Part shown: in pieces, positions 17,040 to 38,324 of the stretch
Layout: every line of letters begins with the position of its first letter
Numbering within the stretch: the stretch's first letter is position 1
Source: Escherichia phage 132
DNA: 64,000 nt
Sequence record: MZ417521
Direction: 5' to 3' (one strand)
Notes under the pieces: generated by a model
Seen by the model: the letters and a program-made list of their open reading frames with translations, nothing else
Database searches by the model: none
What the model was told of the DNA's origin: nothing
Program-made: the position numbers and the translations under genes

Positions 17040-17072
17040 TTATTATAACACAACACGAGGGACTTGTAAACT
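17040..17072 (-). promoter_or_regulatory. T4-type early promoter (GTTTAC -35, TATAAT -10)
   Basis: Minus strand: GTTTAC, 18-nt spacer, TATAAT, then conserved leader ttactgacataacATGAGGA. Confidence 0.6.
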
Positions 17073-19128
17073 ACATTTTGAACTTTTTAGACATTCCGTT
17101 GATGTTAACCAAAGAAGCCAAGATTTGAGAAACTTCGTTTTCCTCTTCTTTTGATTCTTCTACAAGGAATTGATTAAATCCAGCCATTGGACGAACTTCA
17201 CCAGTTTCCATTAGATGGTCGCCATCATATACCGATTCTTCTAATTGTTCAGAAGGAGGAACGATTGTGCCTTCGATTAGATACTTGTTATAAGCAGTTT
17301 CTTTCATCATGTACGTACTCACTTTATTAATCTTCAGCAAAATTCCACGCGGTAAAATAACTTCAGCTTCTGATGGAAATCCTGATAAATGTCCTGGAAC
17401 GATAACTTTGATTCGCTCAGCTCCTTTAATTACCATACCCACGCTAGTTTCAGCATCTTCATTCGCATAAGCAGAGTGACTGCCCATATGCATCAAATCT
17501 TCAGCATCAACTGAACCTTCTCCTTCACCAGAAAATACTGTGCCGGAATCATCTAGGGCCATATAGTTTTTACCATACTCACCGAAGATATTTGGTTTAA
17601 GCGATGTGGATACGAAGTTCTTGAAGTAGAACATTTTATTTTCAATGTTATGACGCAAAGTTTTAAAGGTAACTTCTTGCCCACGATAAAGAGTAGTTCC
17701 TGGAGGAAGAACAGAACCTTTAGCAAATGCAGAATCCAACGTCTCGATGTGTTTAATAGCTCGTTCCATATATTCTTCACGGGTAGAATCAGGTTTACCT
17801 AAAAGGAACGAGTTCATTTCAACATATGAATCTGCACAATAATCTTCAATTACATCAGATTCAGCTTGAGTTAATCCTTTTGGAGTTACTTCGGTGCTTG
17901 CGTATTCATATGCCTGAGCGGCAGATTCATTAATCAATTTATAAATGCCATTCATGACAAATTGAATAATAGCTGTCTTTTCATCTGGTGTAGCTTTAGA
18001 ACCTTTAACTAAATCATTGATAATTTTCTTAATAACATCAAAGCTATTAGAAATATTAATGTCAGCAAGATCGCTTAAAATTTTATCAGTTTTATAATCA
18101 AAGAATTCTTTATTCTTTAAATATTCTTGAGAACCTTGATATGTTATATCGCTCTGCAACTTGATAGATGGATCACGTAAACGTGCATGGGCTAATGCAA
18201 TATGATTTCGGAAACTTTCTAGTTCATAATCGTTAGATTTAAAACGAGAAGCACTTCTCATACCACCGATAGCTCCTTTGCTAAAGTTTGAACCAATCTG
18301 AATAACGCCAGAGTTCATCGGACCTTCTGCTTTATATACCGGAACTTTAGATTCAAACTCTTGATATTTCTTAGCAGCGAAGCTATCACCCTGAAGTGAA
18401 GCATCAACAGTAGAATATTGAGCTTGTGCTGCTAATCGACGACTAATTTTAGTTTTCTGAATAACAGCTTGATCCGTGCGCTTATCATTTTCTAAAGCAA
18501 TAGAAGCAGCAACAGCGACAGCTTTAGGAACAGCATTACCTGTTTTAACGTCTACATAAACATCACCAACCTTTGATTCAACTTTTGTGAATAACTCAGT
18601 TGAAATAGGAGGTACACCTGGAATGTCTTCTAAATTGGCATTTTTACGGTAAACCATAATATATGCATATTTCTTATCATAGTCCCAGATTTCCTTTAAA
18701 AGAACATATCGACCTGCTCCTTTAGTACGTACTAAACGGTCGGCAATAACTTGCATTTGACGAGCTGCACCATTTGTTTTACTCTTTAGTACGCGGAATA
18801 AGCATGCGTCAATTTTATATTGTTTCATTGTTTGAAGAGCAGTATCAAAAACGGCATTAATGACACCAATTGGATTTCCACCCAAGTTTCTAAGTTTAAC
18901 TAATGATAGTTTCTCATTAACACCTATCATTACGATATGCATCATTTTATCGCCTGGCTTAACGTTTTTATTTGTATCACCACCAGAGGTGTATGTACAA
19001 AATCTAAATCCAGGAAGCACACTTTCTTCACCGGCTTGAATAGCAAAAATTTGAGGTATTTTATGCTTAGGATTTAAGTTAACAACCGGCGCCGAAGCGC
19101 CGTCAAATAATTCTGTAATAAGTTCCAT
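17071..19128 (-). CDS. Alt-family ADP-ribosyltransferase paralog, capsid-packaged internal protein type
   Basis: 685 aa; N-terminus MELITELFD... parallels the adjacent Alt; C-terminal R-S-E triad (LYRGQ, VSTSL, EAEVILPRG). Confidence 0.85.
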   Translation of the reverse strand: MELITELFDGASAPVVNLNPKHKIPQIFAIQAGEESVLPGFRFCTYTSGGDTNKNVKPGDKMMHIVMIGVNEKLSLVKLRNLGGNPIGVINAVFDTALQTMKQYKIDACLFRVLKSKTNGAARQMQVIADRLVRTKGAGRYVLLKEIWDYDKKYAYIMVYRKNANLEDIPGVPPISTELFTKVESKVGDVYVDVKTGNAVPKAVAVAASIALENDKRTDQAVIQKTKISRRLAAQAQYSTVDASLQGDSFAAKKYQEFESKVPVYKAEGPMNSGVIQIGSNFSKGAIGGMRSASRFKSNDYELESFRNHIALAHARLRDPSIKLQSDITYQGSQEYLKNKEFFDYKTDKILSDLADINISNSFDVIKKIINDLVKGSKATPDEKTAIIQFVMNGIYKLINESAAQAYEYASTEVTPKGLTQAESDVIEDYCADSYVEMNSFLLGKPDSTREEYMERAIKHIETLDSAFAKGSVLPPGTTLYRGQEVTFKTLRHNIENKMFYFKNFVSTSLKPNIFGEYGKNYMALDDSGTVFSGEGEGSVDAEDLMHMGSHSAYANEDAETSVGMVIKGAERIKVIVPGHLSGFPSEAEVILPRGILLKINKVSTYMMKETAYNKYLIEGTIVPPSEQLEESVYDGDHLMETGEVRPMAGFNQFLVEESKEEENEVSQILASLVNINGMSKKFKM

Positions 19129-19131
19129 GAT

Positions 19132-21228
19132 TTATCCTTGAACGAACTTGTAAGGCATGTTTGTAATATCTATGCAAGACGCAATAATTCCGAGAGATGA
19201 TTCTGCTTTCTGTTTAACATTTGATGAAACAAATGATGCAAAGTCAACTCTGTCTTCTATTTCAATATCACCTGTCATTGCAACCAATTCACCAGTTTCC
19301 ATTAAATGGTCTCCATCATAGATTACCGATTCGGTGAGCTCTTCCGTGGTCATAACTTCAGCTTGAATGAGTTTTGTATTATTAGATGTTGTTCCGTCAT
19401 TATTAGAAGCATCAGTTATTTTATTAACCTTGACCATCAATCCGCGTGGTAGAATAACTTCAGCTTCTGTTGCTATTCCGAGACTTCCTGGATATACAAC
19501 ATTAACTTTATGAGCTCCATCAATTGCCCATCCTATTTGAACTTTAACGTATTCAGGATTTTCTTTATACGCTCTTATTTCGTTTGGATTAATAGTTATT
19601 CCTTCTTCATTTTTATCAACTGTTAATTCATTGCGAGCTTCTGGTTCTAAAAGACCAATACCAGCATGTGTGATTCCAAAACGTCCAAAAATGATAGGAG
19701 TTAAAGAAGTAGATACAAAATTTCTGAAGTAGAACACTTTATTTTTAACTAAAGCTTCGTATATAGGAGCAGTCATACTCTGAGCACGATAAACTGTAAT
19801 GCCTTCTGGTATACGATCACCATTTTCAAAAGCAGAATCTAAATTAGTTATAGCAGCTTCAATTTCTTTTTCACTCATTACTTCATAACGTTCTGGATCA
19901 TAACGACCCAAAAGAAGATTATTGATGTCAGTATACCCTGATCCACAGTATTCTCTAATACCTCTCTTTTGTGATGGAGTATATTTAGAACCATCACGAG
20001 CGATTGTAATATCAATCATAGGACCAGCTCCTACGCCAGAGAAACTGTATATCATTCGTTTAAGAAATTTAGTTTTTGCTGCGTTCCAGGAATTTTTAGT
20101 TATTTCTTCCCAGACTTCATCTGGTTGTCCTTTACGATTTTTATTGTGTTTAGCAAGCCAACTATCTTTGTATTCATCAAAAAGTGAATTAACTGCTGCT
20201 GCGTATTTTTCTAAACATTTTATTGAGGTAGTTGGCTCATTTTTAATAGCATGTAGAATTGTATCTTTAATTTTTTCAGAAACTTCACCAACCCGACTCA
20301 GCGGAAAGAATTTATAATCATAATGAAGTTCATCTGCCGTTCCTTCAGCAATAATTTTTGCTGCCTTTGTTTTAGAAGCTAATGAATTAATTCCAATTTT
20401 CATTTCTTCTGCTTCGGGAATTAAAGGTGCAGTAGCTGGTTTATTAAAATTAGCTGCTGTAGATTCATACTTCTGGAATAATTCACTTTCAAATCTAGAA
20501 GATTCCAATGACTGACTTTGTGCAATTGCTCTACGGGAAATTTTAACTTTAGTAATAACAGCTTGGTCAGAACGCTTATCATTTTCTTGTGCAATTGATG
20601 CTGCAATTGCCTCATTTTTAGTTACTTGGGCTCCAGTATCTTTATTGATATAAACATCGCCGACCTTCGATTCAACTTTAGTAAAGAGCTCGGTACTAAT
20701 TTCCGGAACTCCTGGAATGTCTTCTAGTGATACGTTTTTGCGATGTATAAGAATATATGCATACTTTTTATCATAATCCCAGAGTTCCTTAAGAAGGACG
20801 TATCTGCCACCTGAACGACTACGGATAAGTCTATCAGCAATAACTTGAATTTGTCGAGCTTGACCAGCGGTTTTAGACTTAAGAATACGGAGCATACAAG
20901 CATCAATTTTATATTGACGCATTGTTTGCATTGCAACAGTAAAAACTGAATTGATATAATTAATTGGGCTTGGACCGAGACCTTTTAATTTAGCAATTGA
21001 ACCTTTAGCAGTTAATGTAAAAGGAACAATGTGCATCATTTTATCGCCCATCTTTAAATCACGGTTAGTATCACCTCCAGATGTATAGGTACATAAACGA
21101 AAGCCTGGTTGCTCAATTGCGTCATCAACATGAACTGAAAAAATTTGCGGTATTTTCTTCTTTGGATTTAAGTTTGTAATCGGAAGAGTAGTATCTTCGT
21201 CAAATAATTCTGTAATAAGTTCCATCAT
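19132..21228 (-). CDS. alt: Alt ADP-ribosyltransferase (injected; modifies host RNA polymerase alpha in T4)
   Basis: 698 aa (697 from second Met); R-S-E triad (VYRAQ, VSTSL, EAEVILPRG); adjacent to gene 30 as in T4. Confidence 0.88.
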   Translation of the reverse strand: MMELITELFDEDTTLPITNLNPKKKIPQIFSVHVDDAIEQPGFRLCTYTSGGDTNRDLKMGDKMMHIVPFTLTAKGSIAKLKGLGPSPINYINSVFTVAMQTMRQYKIDACMLRILKSKTAGQARQIQVIADRLIRSRSGGRYVLLKELWDYDKKYAYILIHRKNVSLEDIPGVPEISTELFTKVESKVGDVYINKDTGAQVTKNEAIAASIAQENDKRSDQAVITKVKISRRAIAQSQSLESSRFESELFQKYESTAANFNKPATAPLIPEAEEMKIGINSLASKTKAAKIIAEGTADELHYDYKFFPLSRVGEVSEKIKDTILHAIKNEPTTSIKCLEKYAAAVNSLFDEYKDSWLAKHNKNRKGQPDEVWEEITKNSWNAAKTKFLKRMIYSFSGVGAGPMIDITIARDGSKYTPSQKRGIREYCGSGYTDINNLLLGRYDPERYEVMSEKEIEAAITNLDSAFENGDRIPEGITVYRAQSMTAPIYEALVKNKVFYFRNFVSTSLTPIIFGRFGITHAGIGLLEPEARNELTVDKNEEGITINPNEIRAYKENPEYVKVQIGWAIDGAHKVNVVYPGSLGIATEAEVILPRGLMVKVNKITDASNNDGTTSNNTKLIQAEVMTTEELTESVIYDGDHLMETGELVAMTGDIEIEDRVDFASFVSSNVKQKAESSLGIIASCIDITNMPYKFVQG

Positions 21229-21277: not shown

Positions 21278-21466
21278 TTAATAATCTAGTGGTAAGAGAG
21301 TACGATATATTTCAAACTTCGGACCTTTTTCATAGGCATCAAATGTTTCTGTGAATTTATTATAAGCATATGCATCTACAAATTCGAGAATGACTTGTGA
21401 TACAGAAGTAGAAACATCTCCACCTTCTTTTTGAGCAATGACAATTGTTTCTAAGTAAGCTTTCAT
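21278..21466 (-). CDS. Hypothetical small protein between gene 30 and alt
   Basis: 62-aa ORF, start overlaps the gene 30 stop. Confidence 0.55.
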   Translation of the reverse strand: MKAYLETIVIAQKEGGDVSTSVSQVILEFVDAYAYNKFTETFDAYEKGPKFEIYRTLLPLDY

Positions 21467-22926
21467 AGACCAGTTACCTCATGAAAATCACCAAATACAT
21501 CCTCGAATGTATTAGCTTTAGTTTTATCTTCACGTAAACGAATCGCAATCGGAAGAAATAATTTAACGTAATCAGTGCGGCCATCAGATTTTAACCAACC
21601 GTTGCATTCGCACTCTAGAATTTTTCCAATATAATAATTTTGGTTTTCCATAATGCGAGTACGGTCAAGTTCATGCGATTTTACACCGGCTTTATCTTTT
21701 AAGCCTGAACCAGCATTTACTTTAATTTTTCCACACTCTGACTCAAGAATAAATCCACCTGCTTTAGTAGGGTCTTTACGGTGAGGATAAATTCCTACAA
21801 TTTTTAAATCAACATCAATTACTTCTTTAAATTTATAGAGATTTTTTGAACGAGCATTTTCCCATAATCCATCGATATTTTTGAGAATAATACCTTCAAG
21901 ACCTTGGTCAATATACTTTTTATAAATTACCTTAGCTTCATCTAGGTTATTTACTACCTGGTTTTCAATTAAAATTACTTTATCATATCCCGATGTCATT
22001 TGTTCTAGTTTAGAAAAACGTACATCATATTTTAAACGAAACGCTGGAAGACCGTATATTTCTACCAACGGGACATAATCCCAGACCTGAAACTTCATAC
22101 ATTGAGCTTCTTTTTCAGAAATGGTTCCTTTTAAGGATTTATTGGCGATTCCATTAGAAGTAGTACGAGATTCCGCTACTTCGGCGAATTCTTTGGCTTT
22201 ACTAATTTCAGGATAAGCATCAAAAAGAAAATCTAGGCCTTCTGGTTCCTTTTTAACTTGCTCATGGTATACCAATTCGCCATCAATTAACACACCTTCT
22301 GGATGAATCTGGCGGGCTTCAGCAGTCATTTTGATTAACTCTTCCTTAAGAAGATCTAATCCTAGATATTCATTACCAGCTCGTGATAAAAGACGAACAT
22401 CATCTAATTCATCGCCTCGGACTTCAGCAAAACACCGAGCTCCATCTGCTTTTAACTGCGCAAAGGCTGGAAACTTGATATTCTTATTAATGCCTTTTTC
22501 ATCATAAGAACTTGCAAGCATTTGAGGTTGTTCAGGAATTAAACCTGGCCAAACTTTATTTGCAATAGATACTGAAGCACCGCATTCAAGGTCTCGCATC
22601 ATAACTCGACGCAAAACTTCAACATCATCCTTTTTACCATCAGTGATATATCCAGTTAATTCCTCAATTGCAGCATTTCCAGTCAATTTCCGAGTAGCTA
22701 ACGTGAATTCAATGAAGTCAAGCATATCGGTAATAGTCAGCATTCCAAAACTCTGGGTAGCAATACCCGGTTTAGGCCATTTCTTGATATAATACTGTAA
22801 CCCACGAGAATAAGTCAGACGATATACTCGTTTAAGCAATTCATTATCTTTATTCTTTTCAAGAATTGCTTGCTTCTGCTTAGTTGAACCAATAGATGCT
22901 ATTTCGTTCAGAATTTTAAGAATCAT
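21463..22926 (-). CDS. 30: ATP-dependent DNA ligase gp30
   Basis: 487 aa, same as T4 DNA ligase; MILKILNEIASIGSTKQKQAILEKNKDNELLKRVY. Confidence 0.96.
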   Translation of the reverse strand: MILKILNEIASIGSTKQKQAILEKNKDNELLKRVYRLTYSRGLQYYIKKWPKPGIATQSFGMLTITDMLDFIEFTLATRKLTGNAAIEELTGYITDGKKDDVEVLRRVMMRDLECGASVSIANKVWPGLIPEQPQMLASSYDEKGINKNIKFPAFAQLKADGARCFAEVRGDELDDVRLLSRAGNEYLGLDLLKEELIKMTAEARQIHPEGVLIDGELVYHEQVKKEPEGLDFLFDAYPEISKAKEFAEVAESRTTSNGIANKSLKGTISEKEAQCMKFQVWDYVPLVEIYGLPAFRLKYDVRFSKLEQMTSGYDKVILIENQVVNNLDEAKVIYKKYIDQGLEGIILKNIDGLWENARSKNLYKFKEVIDVDLKIVGIYPHRKDPTKAGGFILESECGKIKVNAGSGLKDKAGVKSHELDRTRIMENQNYYIGKILECECNGWLKSDGRTDYVKLFLPIAIRLREDKTKANTFEDVFGDFHEVTGL

Positions 22927-23192
22927 TGTTCATCCTTTAGAGTTTGGTTTACAGCTCTATTATAAATCAATTCATCATTAAGCTCAGTCAAAGACCTGTG
23001 GTACGTGGTTCTAACTTTATTTCCTTGCATCCAGTGCTTGACGTAAATGAAACCTTGCTCTACACATTTTTTAAAAATTCGTTCGTCTTTTTGAGCTCGG
23101 AATTCTGGATTGCATCTAAAAAATTGATTTACGTGACCGTAATCACGTGTAGTATTACCTTCATTTTCATAAATAGTGTGAACAACAAACAT
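22923..23192 (-). CDS. Hypothetical protein at the T4 30.1 position
   Basis: 89-aa ORF in the 30.x cluster. Confidence 0.65.
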   Translation of the reverse strand: MFVVHTIYENEGNTTRDYGHVNQFFRCNPEFRAQKDERIFKKCVEQGFIYVKHWMQGNKVRTTYHRSLTELNDELIYNRAVNQTLKDEQ

Positions 23193-24055
23193 TAGAATGC
23201 TCCTTGGAAAATATTATCACCACTAGTAAATCTATTAAAATATCCTGCATCACCAGGCTTAGTATAACTCCACGTATGGAATGGATTCATATGATACGGG
23301 TGTGTATAATATGGATTATATGGATGTGTATAATATGGATTATACGGATTAAATCCAGGAGTTCTCCAGGTAGTGTTCCAACGAAAAGAATCGTTTTTAA
23401 CCATCTTCTCAATTACATCTTTTATAGCTTTTTCACTATCAAAACTTTCTTTATTTTCCTTCGGTGAAAAAAGCTTATTTTCTACATCATTCCATGTATA
23501 AACTCGCTGCGCAGTTTTTGGAATATTGTCACGCTCTCCTCGAGCCATCCAATAAACAGGAACATTTAATATTTCACTCGCATGATCGCAGTGGTGGGCG
23601 AGATCGTCAATATAACAAATTACATTATATTTCTCTTTTGCCTTTTTGAATAACTCTTCTTTTGAAGAATCATGACCACACATCATTACTTCTGAGAAGG
23701 CACCAGGAAAAAGAGCATTCAAATTAAATTGACGATTCAGCAGAGCGTCAATAGAATCACCCAATGCTGTAACAGCTACAAAATTATAATCTTCTTTTAG
23801 TTTGTTAATTACGCACAGGGCATCTTTATATGGAGACAGGTAACGAATAAAATCTGATCGATTGTATTTTTCAATTAGCTTGACACCAAGTTCTTCATCA
23901 CAATTAAAGAGTTTACCCGGAGAAATAAATTTCTCATCTTGGATCATTTTTAAAATATGTTCTAACGGAAGATTATATTTCTGAGCAAAATAAGGAAGAC
24001 CTGATTGCCAGCTTAAACATACTCCATCAATATCAGTTAAAATAGTAGGCTTCAT
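23192..24055 (-). CDS. HAD-like phosphatase / nucleotidase-like protein with Tyr/Pro-rich C-terminal tail, at the T4 30.2 position
   Basis: 287 aa; N-terminal LTDIDGV (HAD motif I-like) and YIDDLAHH; C-terminal NPYNPYYTHPY repeats. Confidence 0.7.
   Translation of the reverse strand: MKPTILTDIDGVCLSWQSGLPYFAQKYNLPLEHILKMIQDEKFISPGKLFNCDEELGVKLIEKYNRSDFIRYLSPYKDALCVINKLKEDYNFVAVTALGDSIDALLNRQFNLNALFPGAFSEVMMCGHDSSKEELFKKAKEKYNVICYIDDLAHHCDHASEILNVPVYWMARGERDNIPKTAQRVYTWNDVENKLFSPKENKESFDSEKAIKDVIEKMVKNDSFRWNTTWRTPGFNPYNPYYTHPYNPYYTHPYHMNPFHTWSYTKPGDAGYFNRFTSGDNIFQGAF
23301..23348 (-). repeat. 24-bp tandem direct repeat (x2) encoding NPYYTHPY in the 30.2-like tail
   Basis: tgtgtataatatggattata occurs twice with 24-nt period. 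Confidence 0.7.
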
Positions 24056-24516
24056 AGAGAGTCTCTTAATAGGTTTAACACATCAATAAATTCAGCTTCG
24101 GTTAGTATTGTATCATCTTTTGTTAGACCACTAGCCATGCTGTGCTTCAAAACTTTTCCTTTCGAGGCTTGTAATGCATCGCGAAAGCCCCTGTTTTGGA
24201 ACGCTGCTTCAAAATATGCATTTGTGTATAATTCTTTCCACGCTGGAGAGTATCTTGAAAACGGAACTCCAAGCCAGAAGAGGGTCCCACGGTCCTGAGC
24301 TCTAGCATAAGACCTTCCAGCTTGTTGGGCGGCAAGCCCGGATAACCCAAATATACGACGTTGCTGTTCAATATTTTTCACCTTACACCCTTGGAGGAAT
24401 CCTTCGAGACCTCCAAATTGGATACCATCCATAACAAAAGGCCATTGGGCGAAATTACTTAATGCGCATGATGGCCATCTAAAATTGCTTCTAATCTCTA
24501 ACTCAGACATTTTCAA
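24052..24516 (-). CDS. NADAR-domain (YbiA-like) protein, at the T4 30.3 position
   Basis: 154 aa; ALSNFAQWPFVMDGIQFGGLEGFLQGCK resembles the YbiA/NADAR signature SNFA.WP..VDG...E..FQ..K. Confidence 0.7.
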   Translation of the reverse strand: MKMSELEIRSNFRWPSCALSNFAQWPFVMDGIQFGGLEGFLQGCKVKNIEQQRRIFGLSGLAAQQAGRSYARAQDRGTLFWLGVPFSRYSPAWKELYTNAYFEAAFQNRGFRDALQASKGKVLKHSMASGLTKDDTILTEAEFIDVLNLLRDSL

Positions 24517-24709
24517 TACTTATAATTTCAACATCAGCCCAATGACCATAGCAAGGAAGACGAAATTCAACTGGCCAGTTAGGGTCCTTTTCTAATATAA
24601 TAGACTTAACTTGTGGTTCTTCGTGTTCATCAGTATATGGATTTTTATCTGTTACTTTATATGTGACCTTAATGTACTGAATTCCAAAAATCTTATTAAT
24701 TATATTCAT
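24503..24709 (-). CDS. Hypothetical protein, 30.x cluster
   Basis: 68-aa ORF. Confidence 0.55.
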   Translation of the reverse strand: MNIINKIFGIQYIKVTYKVTDKNPYTDEHEEPQVKSIILEKDPNWPVEFRLPCYGHWADVEIISIENV

Positions 24710-24903
24710 ACTAATTCCTTTAATCCGTAGATAGGAGATAATTCATCACCCATACGAAGGTCTTCATTTCCATCTACCCAGGAAACAATATAAGCCTCTT
24801 TTATTTGAATACCACTCCATTTAAATGGAGGTAGAACCTTAGAAATTAATCCAGGTATACCAACTCCCTTTAATTCAACAGTTTGACCTAAAAAGAATTT
24901 CAT
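24706..24903 (-). CDS. Hypothetical protein, 30.x cluster
   Basis: 65-aa ORF. Confidence 0.55.
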   Translation of the reverse strand: MKFFLGQTVELKGVGIPGLISKVLPPFKWSGIQIKEAYIVSWVDGNEDLRMGDELSPIYGLKELV

Positions 24904-25190
24904 TAAAACCTCATCTGAAAACCGTGCGATTTAACATTACCGCCATTAATATCAGAACTATTAATTTCACGTGCAATTGAGGGATCAATGTCAATTTCGC
25001 GATTGAGTTTAGTGATAGCTAAAGTATCGCGCCCATTTACAGTACGGAACTCTAAAGGGCAGACTACATTAACGTAGTTTTTAATCGATTCACTGGTAGG
25101 TTGCAAATGTGCAGGAAGGTCTTTAGGCGCCTTTGAGAAAACTACTTCGCAGAAGTTTTTACGGGTATCAAAATAAGTAGTCATAAACAT
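24903..25190 (-). CDS. Hypothetical protein, 30.x cluster
   Basis: 95-aa ORF. Confidence 0.6.
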   Translation of the reverse strand: MFMTTYFDTRKNFCEVVFSKAPKDLPAHLQPTSESIKNYVNVVCPLEFRTVNGRDTLAITKLNREIDIDPSIAREINSSDINGGNVKSHGFQMRF

Positions 25191-25206
25191 AACATTTCCT
25201 CAGTAA

Positions 25207-25220
25207 GGGGCCAAAGCCCC
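25207..25220 (-). terminator. Hairpin GGGGC-CAAA-GCCCC
   Basis: GC stem followed by T-run on the minus strand. Confidence 0.5.
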
Positions 25221-25229
25221 TCATTTATT

Positions 25230-25607
25230 TTAAATATCAAATTCGTTAAGAACTACATCAAAGATTGCTTCAAGATGCTCAGGTTTAGCTCTGTTACTCA
25301 GAATATGACGAATCCAAGTTTTAACCAAAAGCTTGCGATTAACGCCATTCCAGCAAGGATGAGTCCCTAAATCGCGTTCACGGAAATCATCATCCAGAGC
25401 GATTTTAAAGTTGGAACCTTCCATCGTGATTGAAACCGTGATACCGTTTTCAAATCGCATATAAACGTAATTAGGAGTCATATACTGCTCAATTTCGCAT
25501 ACTGATCCATTTTGATGTTTCCAAAGGCAAATAGTATCAATAGAACCTGCAATACCATTAGAAACATATTTACGTTCAAAGTTGATGTAGTTCATTTTAT
25601 TCTCCAA
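25230..25607 (-). CDS. Hypothetical protein, 30.x cluster
   Basis: 125-aa ORF with upstream early promoter. Confidence 0.65.
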   Translation of the reverse strand: MENKMNYINFERKYVSNGIAGSIDTICLWKHQNGSVCEIEQYMTPNYVYMRFENGITVSITMEGSNFKIALDDDFRERDLGTHPCWNGVNRKLLVKTWIRHILSNRAKPEHLEAIFDVVLNEFDI

Positions 25608-25629
25608 GATGTTTAATTGCGGTACAGGT

Positions 25630-25662
25630 ATATAATATCATATCCTGTACCAAAGTAAACAA
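25630..25662 (-). promoter_or_regulatory. T4-type early promoter
   Basis: Minus strand GTTTAC, 17-nt spacer, TATTAT. Confidence 0.55.
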
Positions 25663-25995
25663 TTATTTTACTACTTTCCAATGCTGCATGTCAAGTTTAC
25701 CAACTTTTTTCATCTTCTCAATTAAGCGTTCGGCACGTTGGCGAGCTGTAACATAATACCATTCACCTAATTCATTTTGTTCAATTTTTCCAACGATTAC
25801 TGTATTCAATTCATAAATCCAACCAGTAAAGAAATTATGAACTTGAATTGTAAAGGTGAAATCTGTTCCCATACCTTCTGTTGTTTCTACTTCAATAATA
25901 TCACCTTCAACTGCCATTAAGAACCACATAGTTTCATCATATTTACCATTGAAGCATTTAGTTTTAACTGCAGCGTTCAGATTAATCGTTTTCAT
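25663..25995 (-). CDS. Hypothetical protein, 30.x cluster
   Basis: 110-aa ORF. Confidence 0.65.
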   Translation of the reverse strand: MKTINLNAAVKTKCFNGKYDETMWFLMAVEGDIIEVETTEGMGTDFTFTIQVHNFFTGWIYELNTVIVGKIEQNELGEWYYVTARQRAERLIEKMKKVGKLDMQHWKVVK

Positions 25996-26004
25996 TTTAT
26001 TCTC

Positions 26005-26042
26005 CTTTGTTTGTGTAAGATAATACTATCACAAAGGAACCA
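26005..26042 (-). promoter_or_regulatory. T4-type early promoter
   Basis: Minus strand GTTTAC then a TA-rich -10. Confidence 0.5.
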
Positions 26043-26082
26043 TACTGTAAACAACTTTATGCAATCTTTGGAAAATAAAAAA

Positions 26083-26100
26083 GGACTCCCGAAGGAGTCC
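26083..26100 (-). terminator. Hairpin GGACTCC-CGAA-GGAGTCC with T-run
   Basis: 7-bp stem flanked by aaaataaaaaa on the plus strand. Confidence 0.6.
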
Positions 26101-26105
26101 TCAAC

Positions 26106-26282
26106 TTATGCTTTCTGCTTACCAAAACGAGAAGCATCATCTCGAAGAACCGCACGTGCTCGGCGCATGATCTTCTCAACAGTTTGATTGATACGAGAGT
26201 TCGACCCACGCTTGTAGCCAGCGCGTTTAGAATCACCAACTTTCTTTTCAACTGCTTTCTTTGCTTTAGCTTGTTTTGCCAT
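26106..26282 (-). CDS. Small highly basic protein (Lys/Arg-rich), possible nucleic-acid or ribosome binding
   Basis: 58 aa from internal ATG (MAKQAKAKKAVEKKVGDSKRAGYKRG...); track ORF extends to 26324. Confidence 0.55.
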   Translation of the reverse strand: MAKQAKAKKAVEKKVGDSKRAGYKRGSNSRINQTVEKIMRRARAVLRDDASRFGKQKA

Positions 26283-26526
26283 TATAAATTCTCTTTTAAA
26301 TGAAAATGCAGGACTTATTGGCATTGCCTGCGCAAGCCCTCAAGGGGAACATAGGTTTTTGGATATTTAACGACCAGGATAACCATAAACCCGTCATCAT
26401 TCACATTCAAGAGGTACACCGTAAAACTGCCGGGGTCTTAAAACTATAATGATTCGCAAATCATTAATCAGACAGTTCGACGGCTCCTCGATTTAGCTCA
26501 CACTAAGGCAGTGAATCTCCAATAAA

Positions 26527-26775
26527 TTACTTCAATGTTACCACAAAGTGACGAACTGCTTTTCGCGCAGCAGAAGCCAAAGGCTTAGCATATTTAAGTT
26601 CATCTTTTTCCTGAAGCTCAGCAGCTAATGCAGTTTGAGCAGGATTCAGATGTTTGAAATAACGCAGGATTTCAAGAGCTTCGGCTTCAACATCAATAGA
26701 TGCGCCATAGTTTTCGTGACCATTATTCCATGCGTTTCGTTGCAGTTCAAGAGCGTGTTGTAATTGTTTAATCAT
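26527..26775 (-). CDS. rIII: rIII lysis-inhibition accessory protein
   Basis: 82 aa, same as T4 rIII. Confidence 0.9.
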   Translation of the reverse strand: MIKQLQHALELQRNAWNNGHENYGASIDVEAEALEILRYFKHLNPAQTALAAELQEKDELKYAKPLASAARKAVRHFVVTLK

Positions 26776-26914
26776 TTAAAAATTCTCGTTAGAGATTAAA
26801 ACTCGGTAGTCACGTTCTTCTGAATTTCATCTTCTTTCGACAGATCTCTCAGTTGTAGACTACCACATAGAATTGTTCGGTTAACTTATTATTCCGACAC
26901 CCAATTCATATTAT

Positions 26915-26922
26915 TATTTATA
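26915..26922 (-). promoter_or_regulatory. Late promoter TATAAATA (minus strand) in the rIII upstream region
   Basis: Complement of plus-strand tatttata. Confidence 0.45.
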
Positions 26923-27258
26923 TCACTTATAAAGACACGGAATAGCTTTATAGTGACAAGTAACGAATTTTTGTTTAATTTCTTTTGGCTGCTTAAGACC
27001 CAGAGCTACAAAAGGATGCGGAACATTTCGAATTTGACCAACTGGAAGAGAAGTCAAATCACCAACTTCGCAGAAACCTTCAGGAACATCAGGACCGACA
27101 GAGTGAACTACACACAGTTCAGGAACTTCACCTTGAACACGTTTACCGATAATAAGTCCTGATTCTGTAACTTCTTCATCACCGGCTTGTGCAGGTTCAG
27201 AAACTAAAATAACATATTCACCGACAGCACGAATTGGTAGCTGTTGTACTTCAGACAT
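26923..27258 (-). CDS. 31: Co-chaperonin gp31 (GroES-like)
   Basis: 111 aa, same as T4 gp31. Confidence 0.93.
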
Positions 27259-27314
27259 CGTTTTTCCTTTTTGTTAACAGATGAATTAATAATAACAAAT
27301 AATTCTTAAAGCAT

Positions 27315-27622
27315 TTATTTACCAATAAATTGGAGCAAATGCTCAACTTTCATACCATTAACGGAAATCAATTTGTCAATAGAAAAACCTCGCCATGCAC
27401 CAAGTTCAACATCAAATACTGGAATCATATCAGTAGATTCTTTCCGAGTAGATTCAGTCAATTTACCAGTTTGCATGGTTGGCATAAAGTCAGCATCGCG
27501 AGTACCTTTCATAACACGAATAGTACCATCAGACTTTTCAAAAACTACGTTTGAAACACCATGGACAATTTAGTTTTCAAAATTTCACGAATTGCTACTT
27601 TTTGTTCAGTCGTCAGTTTCAT
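27315..27622 (-). pseudogene. Gene 31.1-like ORF split by an apparent -1 frameshift
   Basis: 25-aa N-terminal piece (27545..27622, MKLTTEQKVAIREILKTKLSMVFQT) and 65-aa body (27315..27512) whose frame is open upstream to 27569; the pieces overlap. Confidence 0.45.
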
Positions 27623-35742: not shown

Positions 35743-38007
35743 TCATAATTTACAGGATGAACAATCTTCAGCTTTTGGAGTTTCTATTTCATAATCATCA
35801 GTACCAGAACCGTCGCGGGTATTATGATAATAGAAATTTTTTCCGCCAAAATACCAAAAGTACAAAAGGTCATCAATCATTACAGACATTGGAACCTTTC
35901 CTTTTGGAAAAATCTGCGGGTCATAATATGTATTCGCTGAAGCTGATTGACATACCCATTTCAGCATAATAGCTACCTGCGTAAGATAAGGTTTATTACC
36001 TTTCTTAGCTAATTTCCATGTATAATCATAGAGGTCTATGTTATGTTCAATATTGGGCACGACTTGATTAAAGGAACCCTCTTTTGATTCTTTAACCGAG
36101 ACTGGTCCACGTGGAGGCTCGATACCGTTTGTACTGTTAGAAACTTGGGAAGATGACTCACATGGCATAAGTGCTGATAATGTGCTATTACGGATGCCAA
36201 AGAGCTTAAGGTCTTCCCGCAGCGACGACCAGTCACAAACGTATTTTGGAGCTGCGATTTGGTCAATCTTTTTATTGTACCAGTCGATAGGTAATTCGCC
36301 TCGAGACCAACGAGTGTCTGAATAATATTCGCAAGGTCCTTTTTCTTTGGCGAGCTTAATGGATGCTTTAATGAGTCCATACTGCAATCTCTCAAATAGT
36401 TCATGTGTTAAATCGTTAGCATCTTCATAAGAAGCAAAGTTACTTGCCAGCCAAGCTGCATAGTTGGTAACACCTACGCCAAGATTACGACGCTTTTTAG
36501 CTTTTTCTGCTTCAGGAACTGGATATCCTTGGTAATCCAAAAGATTATCAAGAGCGCGAACTTGAACTTCTGCTAATTCATTAATTTTATCTTGGTCTTG
36601 CCAATCGAAGTTATCCAACACAAATGCAGATAACGTACACAATCCAATTTCAGCATCAGGACTATTTACATCATTTGTTGGAATAGCAATTTCACAACAC
36701 AAGTTACTCTGGCGAATAGGTGCCTTTTCACGAATAAACGGAGTATAGTTATTCGTATTATCAATGAACTGCACATAAATCCTTGCTGTTCCTGAGCGTT
36801 CAGTCATGAGCAATTCAAATAGTTCACGGGCTTTAATACGCTTTTTACGAATATTAGGGTCTTTTTCTGCGGCTTCATATAATTCACGGAAACGGTCTTG
36901 GTCTTTAAAATAAGAATAATAAAGCTCGCCACCCATTTCGTGTGGACTGAACAAAGTAATGTAGTCGTTCTTTCCGAATCGTTCCATCATTAGGTCATTC
37001 AGCTGGACACCATAATCCATATGGCGGATACGGTTTTCTTCTACGCCTTTGTTATTTTTCAAAACGAGAAGATTTTCAACTTCCAAATGCCAAATAGGAT
37101 AATAAGCAGTAGCAGCGCCGCCACGAATTCCGCCCTGTGAACATGATTTAACAGCAGTCTGAAAATGTTTCCAAAAAGGAATAACACCAGTATGACGCAC
37201 TTCACCTGTGCCAATCTTAGAACCTTCGGCACGAATCATACCAACGTTAATACCAATTCCAGCGCGTTTGGAGATATATTCAACAATTGAAGCGGAAGCC
37301 TTATTGATAGACTTCAGCGAATCACCTGCCTCAATAACAACGCATGAACTAAACTGTCGAGTCGGAGTACGACAGCCAGCCATAATAGGAGTTGGTAATG
37401 AAATCTGTCGAGTAGATACTGCTTCATAAAAACGAATAACATGTTTTAATCTATTAACAGGTTCATCTTGATGCAATGCCATTCCAATAGTCATAAATGC
37501 AAACTGTGGAGTTTCATAAATTTGACCAGTGGTTTTATCTTTAACGAGATATTTTTCTTTTAATTGCATCGCCCCGGAATAAGTAAATTCCATATCCCGC
37601 TCGTGCTTAATTTTTGATTCTAAAAATGTAATTTCTTCTGCAGAATATTTTGACAACAATTCAGGGTCATATTTACCTTCATTTACACAGTAAGAAATAT
37701 GGTCAATAAATGAACGTGGTTCATACTGACCGTAAACATGCTTACGAAGAGCAAACATTAAACAGCGTGCAGCTACATATTGATAATCAGGCTCTTCAAC
37801 TGAAATAGAATTCGCAGCAGCCTTAATTACAATGGTTTGAATGTCATCAGTGGTCATTCCATCACGGAGATATGATTTAATATTTTCATATAATTCATAA
37901 GGATCTACAGATGTTCCTTCAGCTGCCCAAGATAAAACTTTAATAATTTTTTGCGGGTCAAAGCTTTGAGAAACACCACTACTTTTGATAACATTAATTA
38001 ATTGCAT
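35743..38007 (-). CDS. nrdA: Ribonucleotide reductase large subunit
   Basis: 754 aa; N-terminal ATP-cone, C-terminal CxxC. Confidence 0.96.
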   Translation of the reverse strand: MQLINVIKSSGVSQSFDPQKIIKVLSWAAEGTSVDPYELYENIKSYLRDGMTTDDIQTIVIKAAANSISVEEPDYQYVAARCLMFALRKHVYGQYEPRSFIDHISYCVNEGKYDPELLSKYSAEEITFLESKIKHERDMEFTYSGAMQLKEKYLVKDKTTGQIYETPQFAFMTIGMALHQDEPVNRLKHVIRFYEAVSTRQISLPTPIMAGCRTPTRQFSSCVVIEAGDSLKSINKASASIVEYISKRAGIGINVGMIRAEGSKIGTGEVRHTGVIPFWKHFQTAVKSCSQGGIRGGAATAYYPIWHLEVENLLVLKNNKGVEENRIRHMDYGVQLNDLMMERFGKNDYITLFSPHEMGGELYYSYFKDQDRFRELYEAAEKDPNIRKKRIKARELFELLMTERSGTARIYVQFIDNTNNYTPFIREKAPIRQSNLCCEIAIPTNDVNSPDAEIGLCTLSAFVLDNFDWQDQDKINELAEVQVRALDNLLDYQGYPVPEAEKAKKRRNLGVGVTNYAAWLASNFASYEDANDLTHELFERLQYGLIKASIKLAKEKGPCEYYSDTRWSRGELPIDWYNKKIDQIAAPKYVCDWSSLREDLKLFGIRNSTLSALMPCESSSQVSNSTNGIEPPRGPVSVKESKEGSFNQVVPNIEHNIDLYDYTWKLAKKGNKPYLTQVAIMLKWVCQSASANTYYDPQIFPKGKVPMSVMIDDLLYFWYFGGKNFYYHNTRDGSGTDDYEIETPKAEDCSSCKL

Positions 38008-38324
38008 AAGTCCTCAACTTGAAAATCGTCTTTAAACAATCGGTTAACTATATGAGCTATTATATCACCATGACACGGCTTTGGTTTACATGTGCATCCT
38101 AGCCTCATTCCACGTAAAGGCTCTAAATGTGCTTTAGTTATTTCTCCGGATTTAATTCGACGTATAAAATCTTTTTTGAATAATTCAATGGCAGCCTCCC
38201 GGCTGCCAGCATCTTTACCGACGTAATTTCCCCAAAATGTACCACGGTGAATATTAACATCAAAGTCGGATTTATATTTATTCACTACCTGGCATAGACG
38301 GCCCGCGCGGTGATAATTCGTCAT
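37998..38324 (-). CDS. DUF4326-like protein, at the T4 nrdA.1 position
   Basis: 108 aa; GNY...R..AI..F and C-terminal [12 protein letters not shown] resemble the DUF4326 signature. Confidence 0.6.

Follow-up and report, generated by a model that had tools for sequence, protein, structure and literature searches.

Escherichia phage 132 encodes an orthologue of T4 gene 30.3 (adfN), very probably a functional NADAR-fold ADP-ribosylglycohydrolase that reverses DarT1 damage

The 64,000 nucleotides of Escherichia phage 132 analyzed here (sequence record MZ417521; the window in what follows) contain, at positions 24052..24516, an open reading frame (ORF) whose translation carries the motifs SNFAQWP, MDG and EGFLQGCK. 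The question raised by this locus is whether the encoded protein is a NADAR enzyme that removes ADP-ribose from modified DNA. The initial annotation had described the ORF as YbiA/NADAR-type, had considered that it might remove the ADP-ribose placed on guanine by DarT-type toxins, and had listed it together with two Alt transferases and a DUF4326-like protein as a set of ADP-ribose-related functions. The ORF and its motifs were found as described, on the minus strand, which the annotation had not stated. Very probably, the ORF is orthologous to T4 gene 30.3, renamed adfN (anti-DarT factor NADAR) in 2025 (PMC11825919), and encodes a functional NADAR-fold ADP-ribosylglycohydrolase reversing DarT1 damage.

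The adfN ORF lies far beyond a chance match. Pfam family PF08010 (Phage_30_3, Bacteriophage protein GP30.3) was matched over the entire model (positions 1-138 of 138) with E = 4.8e-69 and a score of 231 bits, the cutoff being 36, and PHROG 652 was matched with E = 3.6e-51. BLASTP against the T4 RefSeq gave 148 identities with gp30.3 (NP_049816.1) over 152 positions (97%) and zero gaps. The only differences from T4 AdfN are the conservative substitutions V47I, I104F, K107R and I124M. All four positions also vary among close homologues, and M124 is shared with the phages Bp7 and dhaeg.

The length of 154 amino acids (aa) given in the initial annotation holds for the frame as it stands in the ORF list, read from a TTG at 24516, whereas the product itself is most likely 152 aa long and starts at the ATG at 24510, the third codon of that frame (MSELEIRS...). 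The TTG start would add two residues; the stop codon occupies 24052-24054. The ATG is favored because T4 gene 30.3 is annotated with 459 nucleotides (nt) and 152 aa, because MSELE is the N-terminus of close homologues (MSELEIRS), and because the published catalytic numbering, E36 and K43, is obtained only with this start.

The function of the T4 protein has been studied directly. Using RB69 chimeras, Johannesman et al. (Nat Commun 2025; PMC11825919) traced the ability of T2 and T4 to resist DarTG1 to gene 30.3; the RB69 allele carries a frameshift, has lost its last 15 residues and leaves the phage DarTG1-sensitive. According to the same authors, T4 or T2 deleted for adfN does not plaque on DarTG1 hosts, RB69 is rescued on such hosts by adfN expression, and the E36A, K43A and C-terminally truncated forms of T4 AdfN are impaired. 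Purified AdfN freed DarT1-modified DNA of ADP-ribose, as seen from the loss of the dot-blot signal, and the E36A protein did not; DarT1 was not bound, and DarTG2 was not countered, by AdfN (PMC11825919). T4 gp30.3 hydrolyzed guanosine-ADP-ribose on DNA in vitro, but not thymidine-ADP-ribose (PMC11125620). In an independent transposon screen of T4, 30.3/adfN was dispensable on K-12 and conditionally essential on DarTG1 hosts. The activity that the initial annotation had suggested, removal of ADP-ribose from DarT-modified guanine in DNA, is therefore published for a protein 97% identical to the one in the window. Family, fold, catalytic residues, substrate and anti-DarTG1 role are all already known from publications of 2023-2025 on that protein, which differs at 4 of 152 residues, and the practical value of the present assignment lies in the annotation of Tequatrovirus records: phage 132 can now be predicted to be DarTG1-resistant, unlike RB69.

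The residues on which the activity of T4 AdfN depends were looked for in the window, a check that the initial annotation had proposed for the catalytic positions; E36 and K43 are conserved (Table 1). Conservation was assessed in an alignment of 76 diverse single-domain family members whose identity to the query ranges from 30 to 57%. All of them share E36 and N19, and K43, H123, Q40 and a TILTE motif near the C-terminus are each at least 90% conserved. Three groups of NADAR proteins are distinguished by which charged residue the last strand carries: His in phage NADAR, Glu in YbiA and Asp in DarG1 (PMC11125620, PMC12945103). H123 is located within the predicted last strand of the AlphaFold2 model (122-125 in the 154-aa numbering), and a C-terminal helix is predicted at 140-153 in the same numbering. 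The alignment with T4 runs without a gap to residue 152, so that the C-terminal helix missing in RB69 is intact here.

The assignment of adfN to the NADAR proteins rests on bridging family sequences and on the fold, not on a direct profile match. The family grew to 1449 members at E <= 0.001 when its profile was searched against 1.84 billion representative proteins. When the 76 aligned members were scanned one by one, PF08010 was present in 76 of 76 and PF08719 (NADAR) in 29 of 76 (best E = 3.5e-6), while PF22397 (NADAR-DarT1) was touched by a single member. The 76-sequence profile, searched against PDB sequences, gave E. coli YbiA as the sole match below 0.001 (E = 8.1e-4), with an alignment covering the SNF and E-x-x-x-Q-x-x-K blocks. 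The AlphaFold2 model of the 154-aa ORF, built on the first family alignment, reached a mean predicted local distance difference test score (pLDDT) of 89.1 and a predicted template modeling score (pTM) of 0.86. In a Foldseek search of the PDB its top match was YbiA (2b3w; E = 5.3e-5, TM 0.68, probability 1.00), and the Geobacter lovleyi NADAR 8bat and the Phytophthora NADAR with ADP-ribose 8bau were each found with a probability of 1.00; from rank 4 onward E exceeded 1. The model thus predicts a NADAR alpha+beta fold, and together with the bridging sequences it makes the link to NADAR solid. The YbiA/NADAR-type reading of the initial annotation is borne out by the family bridge to PF08719, by the profile match to YbiA and by fold matches that include NADAR structures only.

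Several results weigh against this interpretation. A search with the NADAR/DUF1768 profile had been proposed as a check, with the lack of a significant hit counting against the assignment; in the Pfam scan PF08719 had no direct match to the adfN protein even at E <= 10, which taken literally speaks against a NADAR, although the test was judged too strict. The NCBIfam search of the protein returned nothing, the PADLOC defence models gave no match, and a single-sequence search of PDB sequences returned nothing relevant; a 10-sequence profile ranked E. coli YbiA first among PDB sequences, yet with E = 0.058 only. On the functional side, T4 gp30.3 failed to protect E. coli against DarT1 (PMC11125620), and T4 AdfN rescued non-T-even phages weakly, from which a T-even helper factor is implied. 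Moreover, the activity and the DarTG1 phenotype were recorded with the T4 protein and not with this exact allele. Fold, catalytic residues, intact C-terminus, synteny and identity to T4 are established for the ORF in the window; from the 97% identity we infer that this allele would behave as T4 AdfN does.

The adfN product would accordingly be described as a minimal single-domain NADAR, probably made early in infection from the 30.x run of genes. In a host carrying the DarTG1 toxin-antitoxin system, DarT1 would ADP-ribosylate guanine in the phage DNA and replication would be blocked. With E36, K43 and H123 as its active residues, AdfN would then cut the N-glycosidic bond that joins ADP-ribose to guanine, and with the DNA restored phage replication would resume. 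The enzyme is expected neither to bind the toxin nor to attack the thymidine-ADP-ribose made by DarT2.

Other substrates have to be weighed. It is unlikely that RNA carrying ADP-ribosylated guanosine is an additional or the principal substrate of the adfN product, which would then act against RNA-targeting ADP-ribosyltransferase (ART) defences or toxins. The T4 phage NADAR does strip guanosine-ADP-ribose from RNA in vitro, far less efficiently than the E. coli C7 NADAR (PMC11833690, PMC12945103), and the AdfN authors speculated about DNA- or RNA-ADP-ribosylating defences other than DarTG1. The literature describes no RNA phenotype in vivo, however, and the activity on RNA is below that of the DarT1-linked NADAR (PMC11833690). 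The phage NADAR is moreover tabulated for guanosine-ADP-ribose, the reversers of cytidine-ADP-ribose (C-ADP-ribose) being NADAR and YbiA NADAR only (PMC12945103).

That soluble ADP-ribose derivatives, such as immune signals of the cyclic ADP-ribose type or by-products of RNA repair, are the main substrates instead of ADP-ribosylated DNA is highly improbable. Such a role was proposed for phage NADARs from their context before experiments were available, Iyer et al. having noted that those of T4-like phages are early genes near ARTs (PMC9503650). Another gene of the window specifies a DUF4326 protein, for which the literature predicts a role in the processing of ribose-linked phosphates (PMC9503650). 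Hydrolysis of guanosine-ADP-ribose on DNA and the strict DarTG1 phenotype have nevertheless been demonstrated for the 97%-identical T4 protein, and the literature consulted on phage NADARs reports no activity on soluble signals.

YbiA is the best match among solved structures in both structure and sequence and shares the SNF...W/F and E-x-[FY]-x-Q-x-x-K motif block of the adfN product, which might point to a housekeeping N-glycosidase acting on intermediates of the riboflavin pathway. YbiA (2b3w, PF08719) is only 19% identical, has Glu where the adfN product has His on the last strand, and serves a housekeeping, riboflavin-related role from a LexA-controlled host operon (PMC11125620). The published phylogeny places the gp30.3-type NADARs closest to the DarG1 type, and retention of the gene is explained by the DarTG1 phenotype; a YbiA-like function is thus scarcely credible. 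Equally hard to credit, and rejected here, is a decayed, RB69-like and non-functional allele: the RB69 frameshift exists and a few phage records (H31, H32) match residues 1-144 only, but the ORF in the window is full-length and gap-free against T4, with E36, K43, H123 and the C-terminal helix all in place.

With these alternatives set aside, the reading of the adfN product as a reverser of DarT1 damage can be placed among the characterized NADARs. AdfN of T4 is the nearest, with the same length of 152 aa, the same E36, K43 and H123, the same C-terminal helix and the same neighbors, 30.4 upstream and 30.2 downstream with ligase and alt beyond. DarG1 (Geobacter lovleyi 8bat; PF22397) has the NADAR core fold and de-ADP-ribosylates guanine in DNA, and its clade is the closest to the gp30.3 type in the published phylogeny. 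In contrast to adfN, which is an orphan between the orthologues of 30.4 and 30.2, DarG1 is paired with DarT1. It has an N-terminal extension, whereas the adfN product consists of the core only, with NADAR motifs from about residue 17 (phage NADAR: PMC12945103). DarG1 also has Asp in place of His, shows 16% identity in the structural alignment, and cannot be replaced by T4 AdfN in uninfected cells. AdfN(Bas32) and AdfN(Bas60), from T5-like phages and Vequintavirinae, are likewise phage NADARs active against DarTG1, with a specificity for guanine-ADP-ribose; they differ in belonging to other NADAR clades, acquired independently, and in neutralizing DarT1 without phage infection.

Records of adfN and its relatives are annotated unevenly. 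All annotated Tequatrovirus records that the searches displayed call the product "hypothetical protein", and in the Dhakavirus phage dhaeg (MN850609; L003:1501-1959) the orthologue is mislabeled "DNA ligase", an error carried over from a neighboring gene. For gp30.3 of phiR1-RT the annotated coding sequence begins at an internal start and has 318 nt, compared with the 438 nt that the match covers. The methods of the Toxins 2024 article (PMC11125620) give the T4 gp30.3 construct as "residues 1-208", compared with 152 aa in the T4 RefSeq (L001:10308-10766); the frame limit of 154 aa in the window is likewise at odds with that construct.

Relatives of greater length are common in the family. PHROG 652 is a profile of 296 positions, and the adfN protein spans only positions 126-272. 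About half of the best 150 gp30.3-type NADAR representatives exceed 200 aa, the longest having 559 aa, and many members carry extra domains. Several members of about 290 aa give two matches to the profile and may thus contain tandem NADAR domains or be fusions.

T4-type AdfN is fully effective only in the course of a T-even infection. It is very unlikely that the helper involved is encoded in this window; the candidates would be the translationally coupled 30.2 and, after it, the DUF4326 protein NrdA.1. If such a helper existed, 30.2 or NrdA.1 could localize or stabilize AdfN or dispose of released ADP-ribose. In the searched text of the T4 transposon screen on DarTG1, which leaves the DarTG1 hit list aside, adfN alone is named and 30.2 is never mentioned. 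Genes 30.2 and 30.3 are adjacent in T4, Bp7, dhaeg and Acinetobacter phage KARL-1, and are not adjacent in phiR1-RT, CcrColossus and Vibrio phage TCU-VP03-AIR1 (schizo-T4). An obligate partnership of gp30.2 with AdfN was rejected because adjacency is not conserved in these three more distant phages.

The orthologue of gp30.2 itself is labeled "hypothetical" in the records checked, and neither Pfam nor the PADLOC defence models gave a match. Its first ~200 residues were modeled confidently, with block means of pLDDT above 90 to about residue 190. At E <= 0.001 the model had matches in 102 PDB chains, and those listed, 50 in number, all have the HAD fold. Among the structural matches are the 5'(3')-deoxyribonucleotidases 2jao, 2i7d and 3bwv, and a 5'(3')-deoxyribonucleotidase is also the nearest sequence match of gp30.2 among solved structures. 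Residues D8, D10, G11, K132, D150 and D151 are invariant in 32 homologues and can be read as HAD motifs. The protein is predicted to be phosphatase-like and of the HAD superfamily. Its last ~60 residues are predicted to be disordered and contain NPY...THPY repeats.

The window comes from a T4-like phage of the genus Tequatrovirus. A megablast search with positions 23000-25500 retrieved 720 phage records, headed by Escherichia phages ES12 and ES26, both 100% identical, and followed by hundreds of Tequatrovirus genomes with 90-99% identity. The region agrees gene for gene with the T4 map, all genes being on the minus strand and most overlapping by a few bases, and the T4 order 30.4, 30.3, 30.2, 30.1, ligase, alt.1, alt is kept. 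The end of 30.4 contains the adfN ATG, and the 30.4 stop overlaps the adfN start (ATGTCTGA); the adfN stop and the 30.2 ATG share 4 nt (ATGA). Such overlaps with 30.4 and 30.2 are typical of T4 packing. The features are summarized in Table 1.

Table 1. Coordinates of adfN, its functional positions and other features considered in the window
Feature	Position	Strand	Basis
Second full-length Alt paralogue	17071..19128	-	PF03496; 41% identity to T4 Alt
Alt ADP-ribosyltransferase, T4 alt orthologue	19132..21228	-	PF03496; 70% identity to T4 Alt
Ligase (gene 30)	21463..22926	-	T4 map match
30.1 (DUF3045)	22923..23192	-	T4 map match
30.2 orthologue, 287 aa	23192..24055	-	ORF list, T4 map
adfN (T4 gene 30.3 orthologue), 152 aa	24052..24510	-	PF08010; 148/152 to T4 gp30.3; T4 annotation
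C-terminal helix of AdfN, last 15 residues (138-152)	24055..24099	-	Gap-free T4 alignment, predicted helix
H123 codon (CAC), last-strand histidine marking gp30.3-type NADARs	24142..24144	-	Sequence; family distinction
Counterpart of T4-annotated ORF 30.3', +1 frame inside adfN	24147..24371	-	89% identical to T4's
K43 codon (AAG), catalytic lysine of the E-x-x-x-Q-x-x-K motif	24382..24384	-	Sequence; published K43A
E36 codon (GAA), catalytic glutamate	24403..24405	-	Sequence read; published E36A
30.4 orthologue, 68 aa; followed by 30.5 and onward	24503..24709	-	phrog_2042 (function-unknown family)
DUF4326 protein, 108 aa, nrdA.1 position beside nrdA	37998..38324	-	PF14216; neighboring annotations in relatives

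A scan of 22900..27500 for promoters was uninformative, with 17 promoter-like sites where 15.4 would be expected, and no claim is made for a promoter of adfN's own; 3 terminator-like sites were found in the same interval against 2.9 expected. In the window as in T4, Bp7 and dhaeg, the +1 frame of ORF 30.3' runs for 76 codons without a stop. A second selected product was rejected, as 22% of synonymous resamplings give an equally long frame; nor is selection supported by the synonymous changes, which number 20-23 inside the overlap versus 22 outside, with no depletion.

Of the other genes connected with ADP-ribose, the two Alt transferases noted initially between 17071 and 21228 were confirmed by matches to PF03496, with E-values of 2e-20 (17071..19128) and 9e-37 (19132..21228), and the DUF4326 assignment was confirmed by PF14216 (E = 1.3e-21; score 77.5 bits, cutoff 25). 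A plus-strand reading of 37998..38324 was rejected on account of 6 stops. The functional grouping of these genes with the NADAR that the initial annotation had implied found no support beyond the shared ADP-ribose chemistry, and no evidence was found of the Alt or DUF4326 genes acting together with AdfN. The DUF4326 protein matches the C-terminal positions 182-300 of the 322-position phrog_464, which suggests longer or fused relatives. The T4 alt orthologue is nearly identical to T4 Alt at its termini and divergent in the middle. The second Alt paralogue occupies the site where T4 keeps only the fragments alt.-1 and alt.-2, explained in the T4 annotation as what is left of an alt duplication that has decayed.

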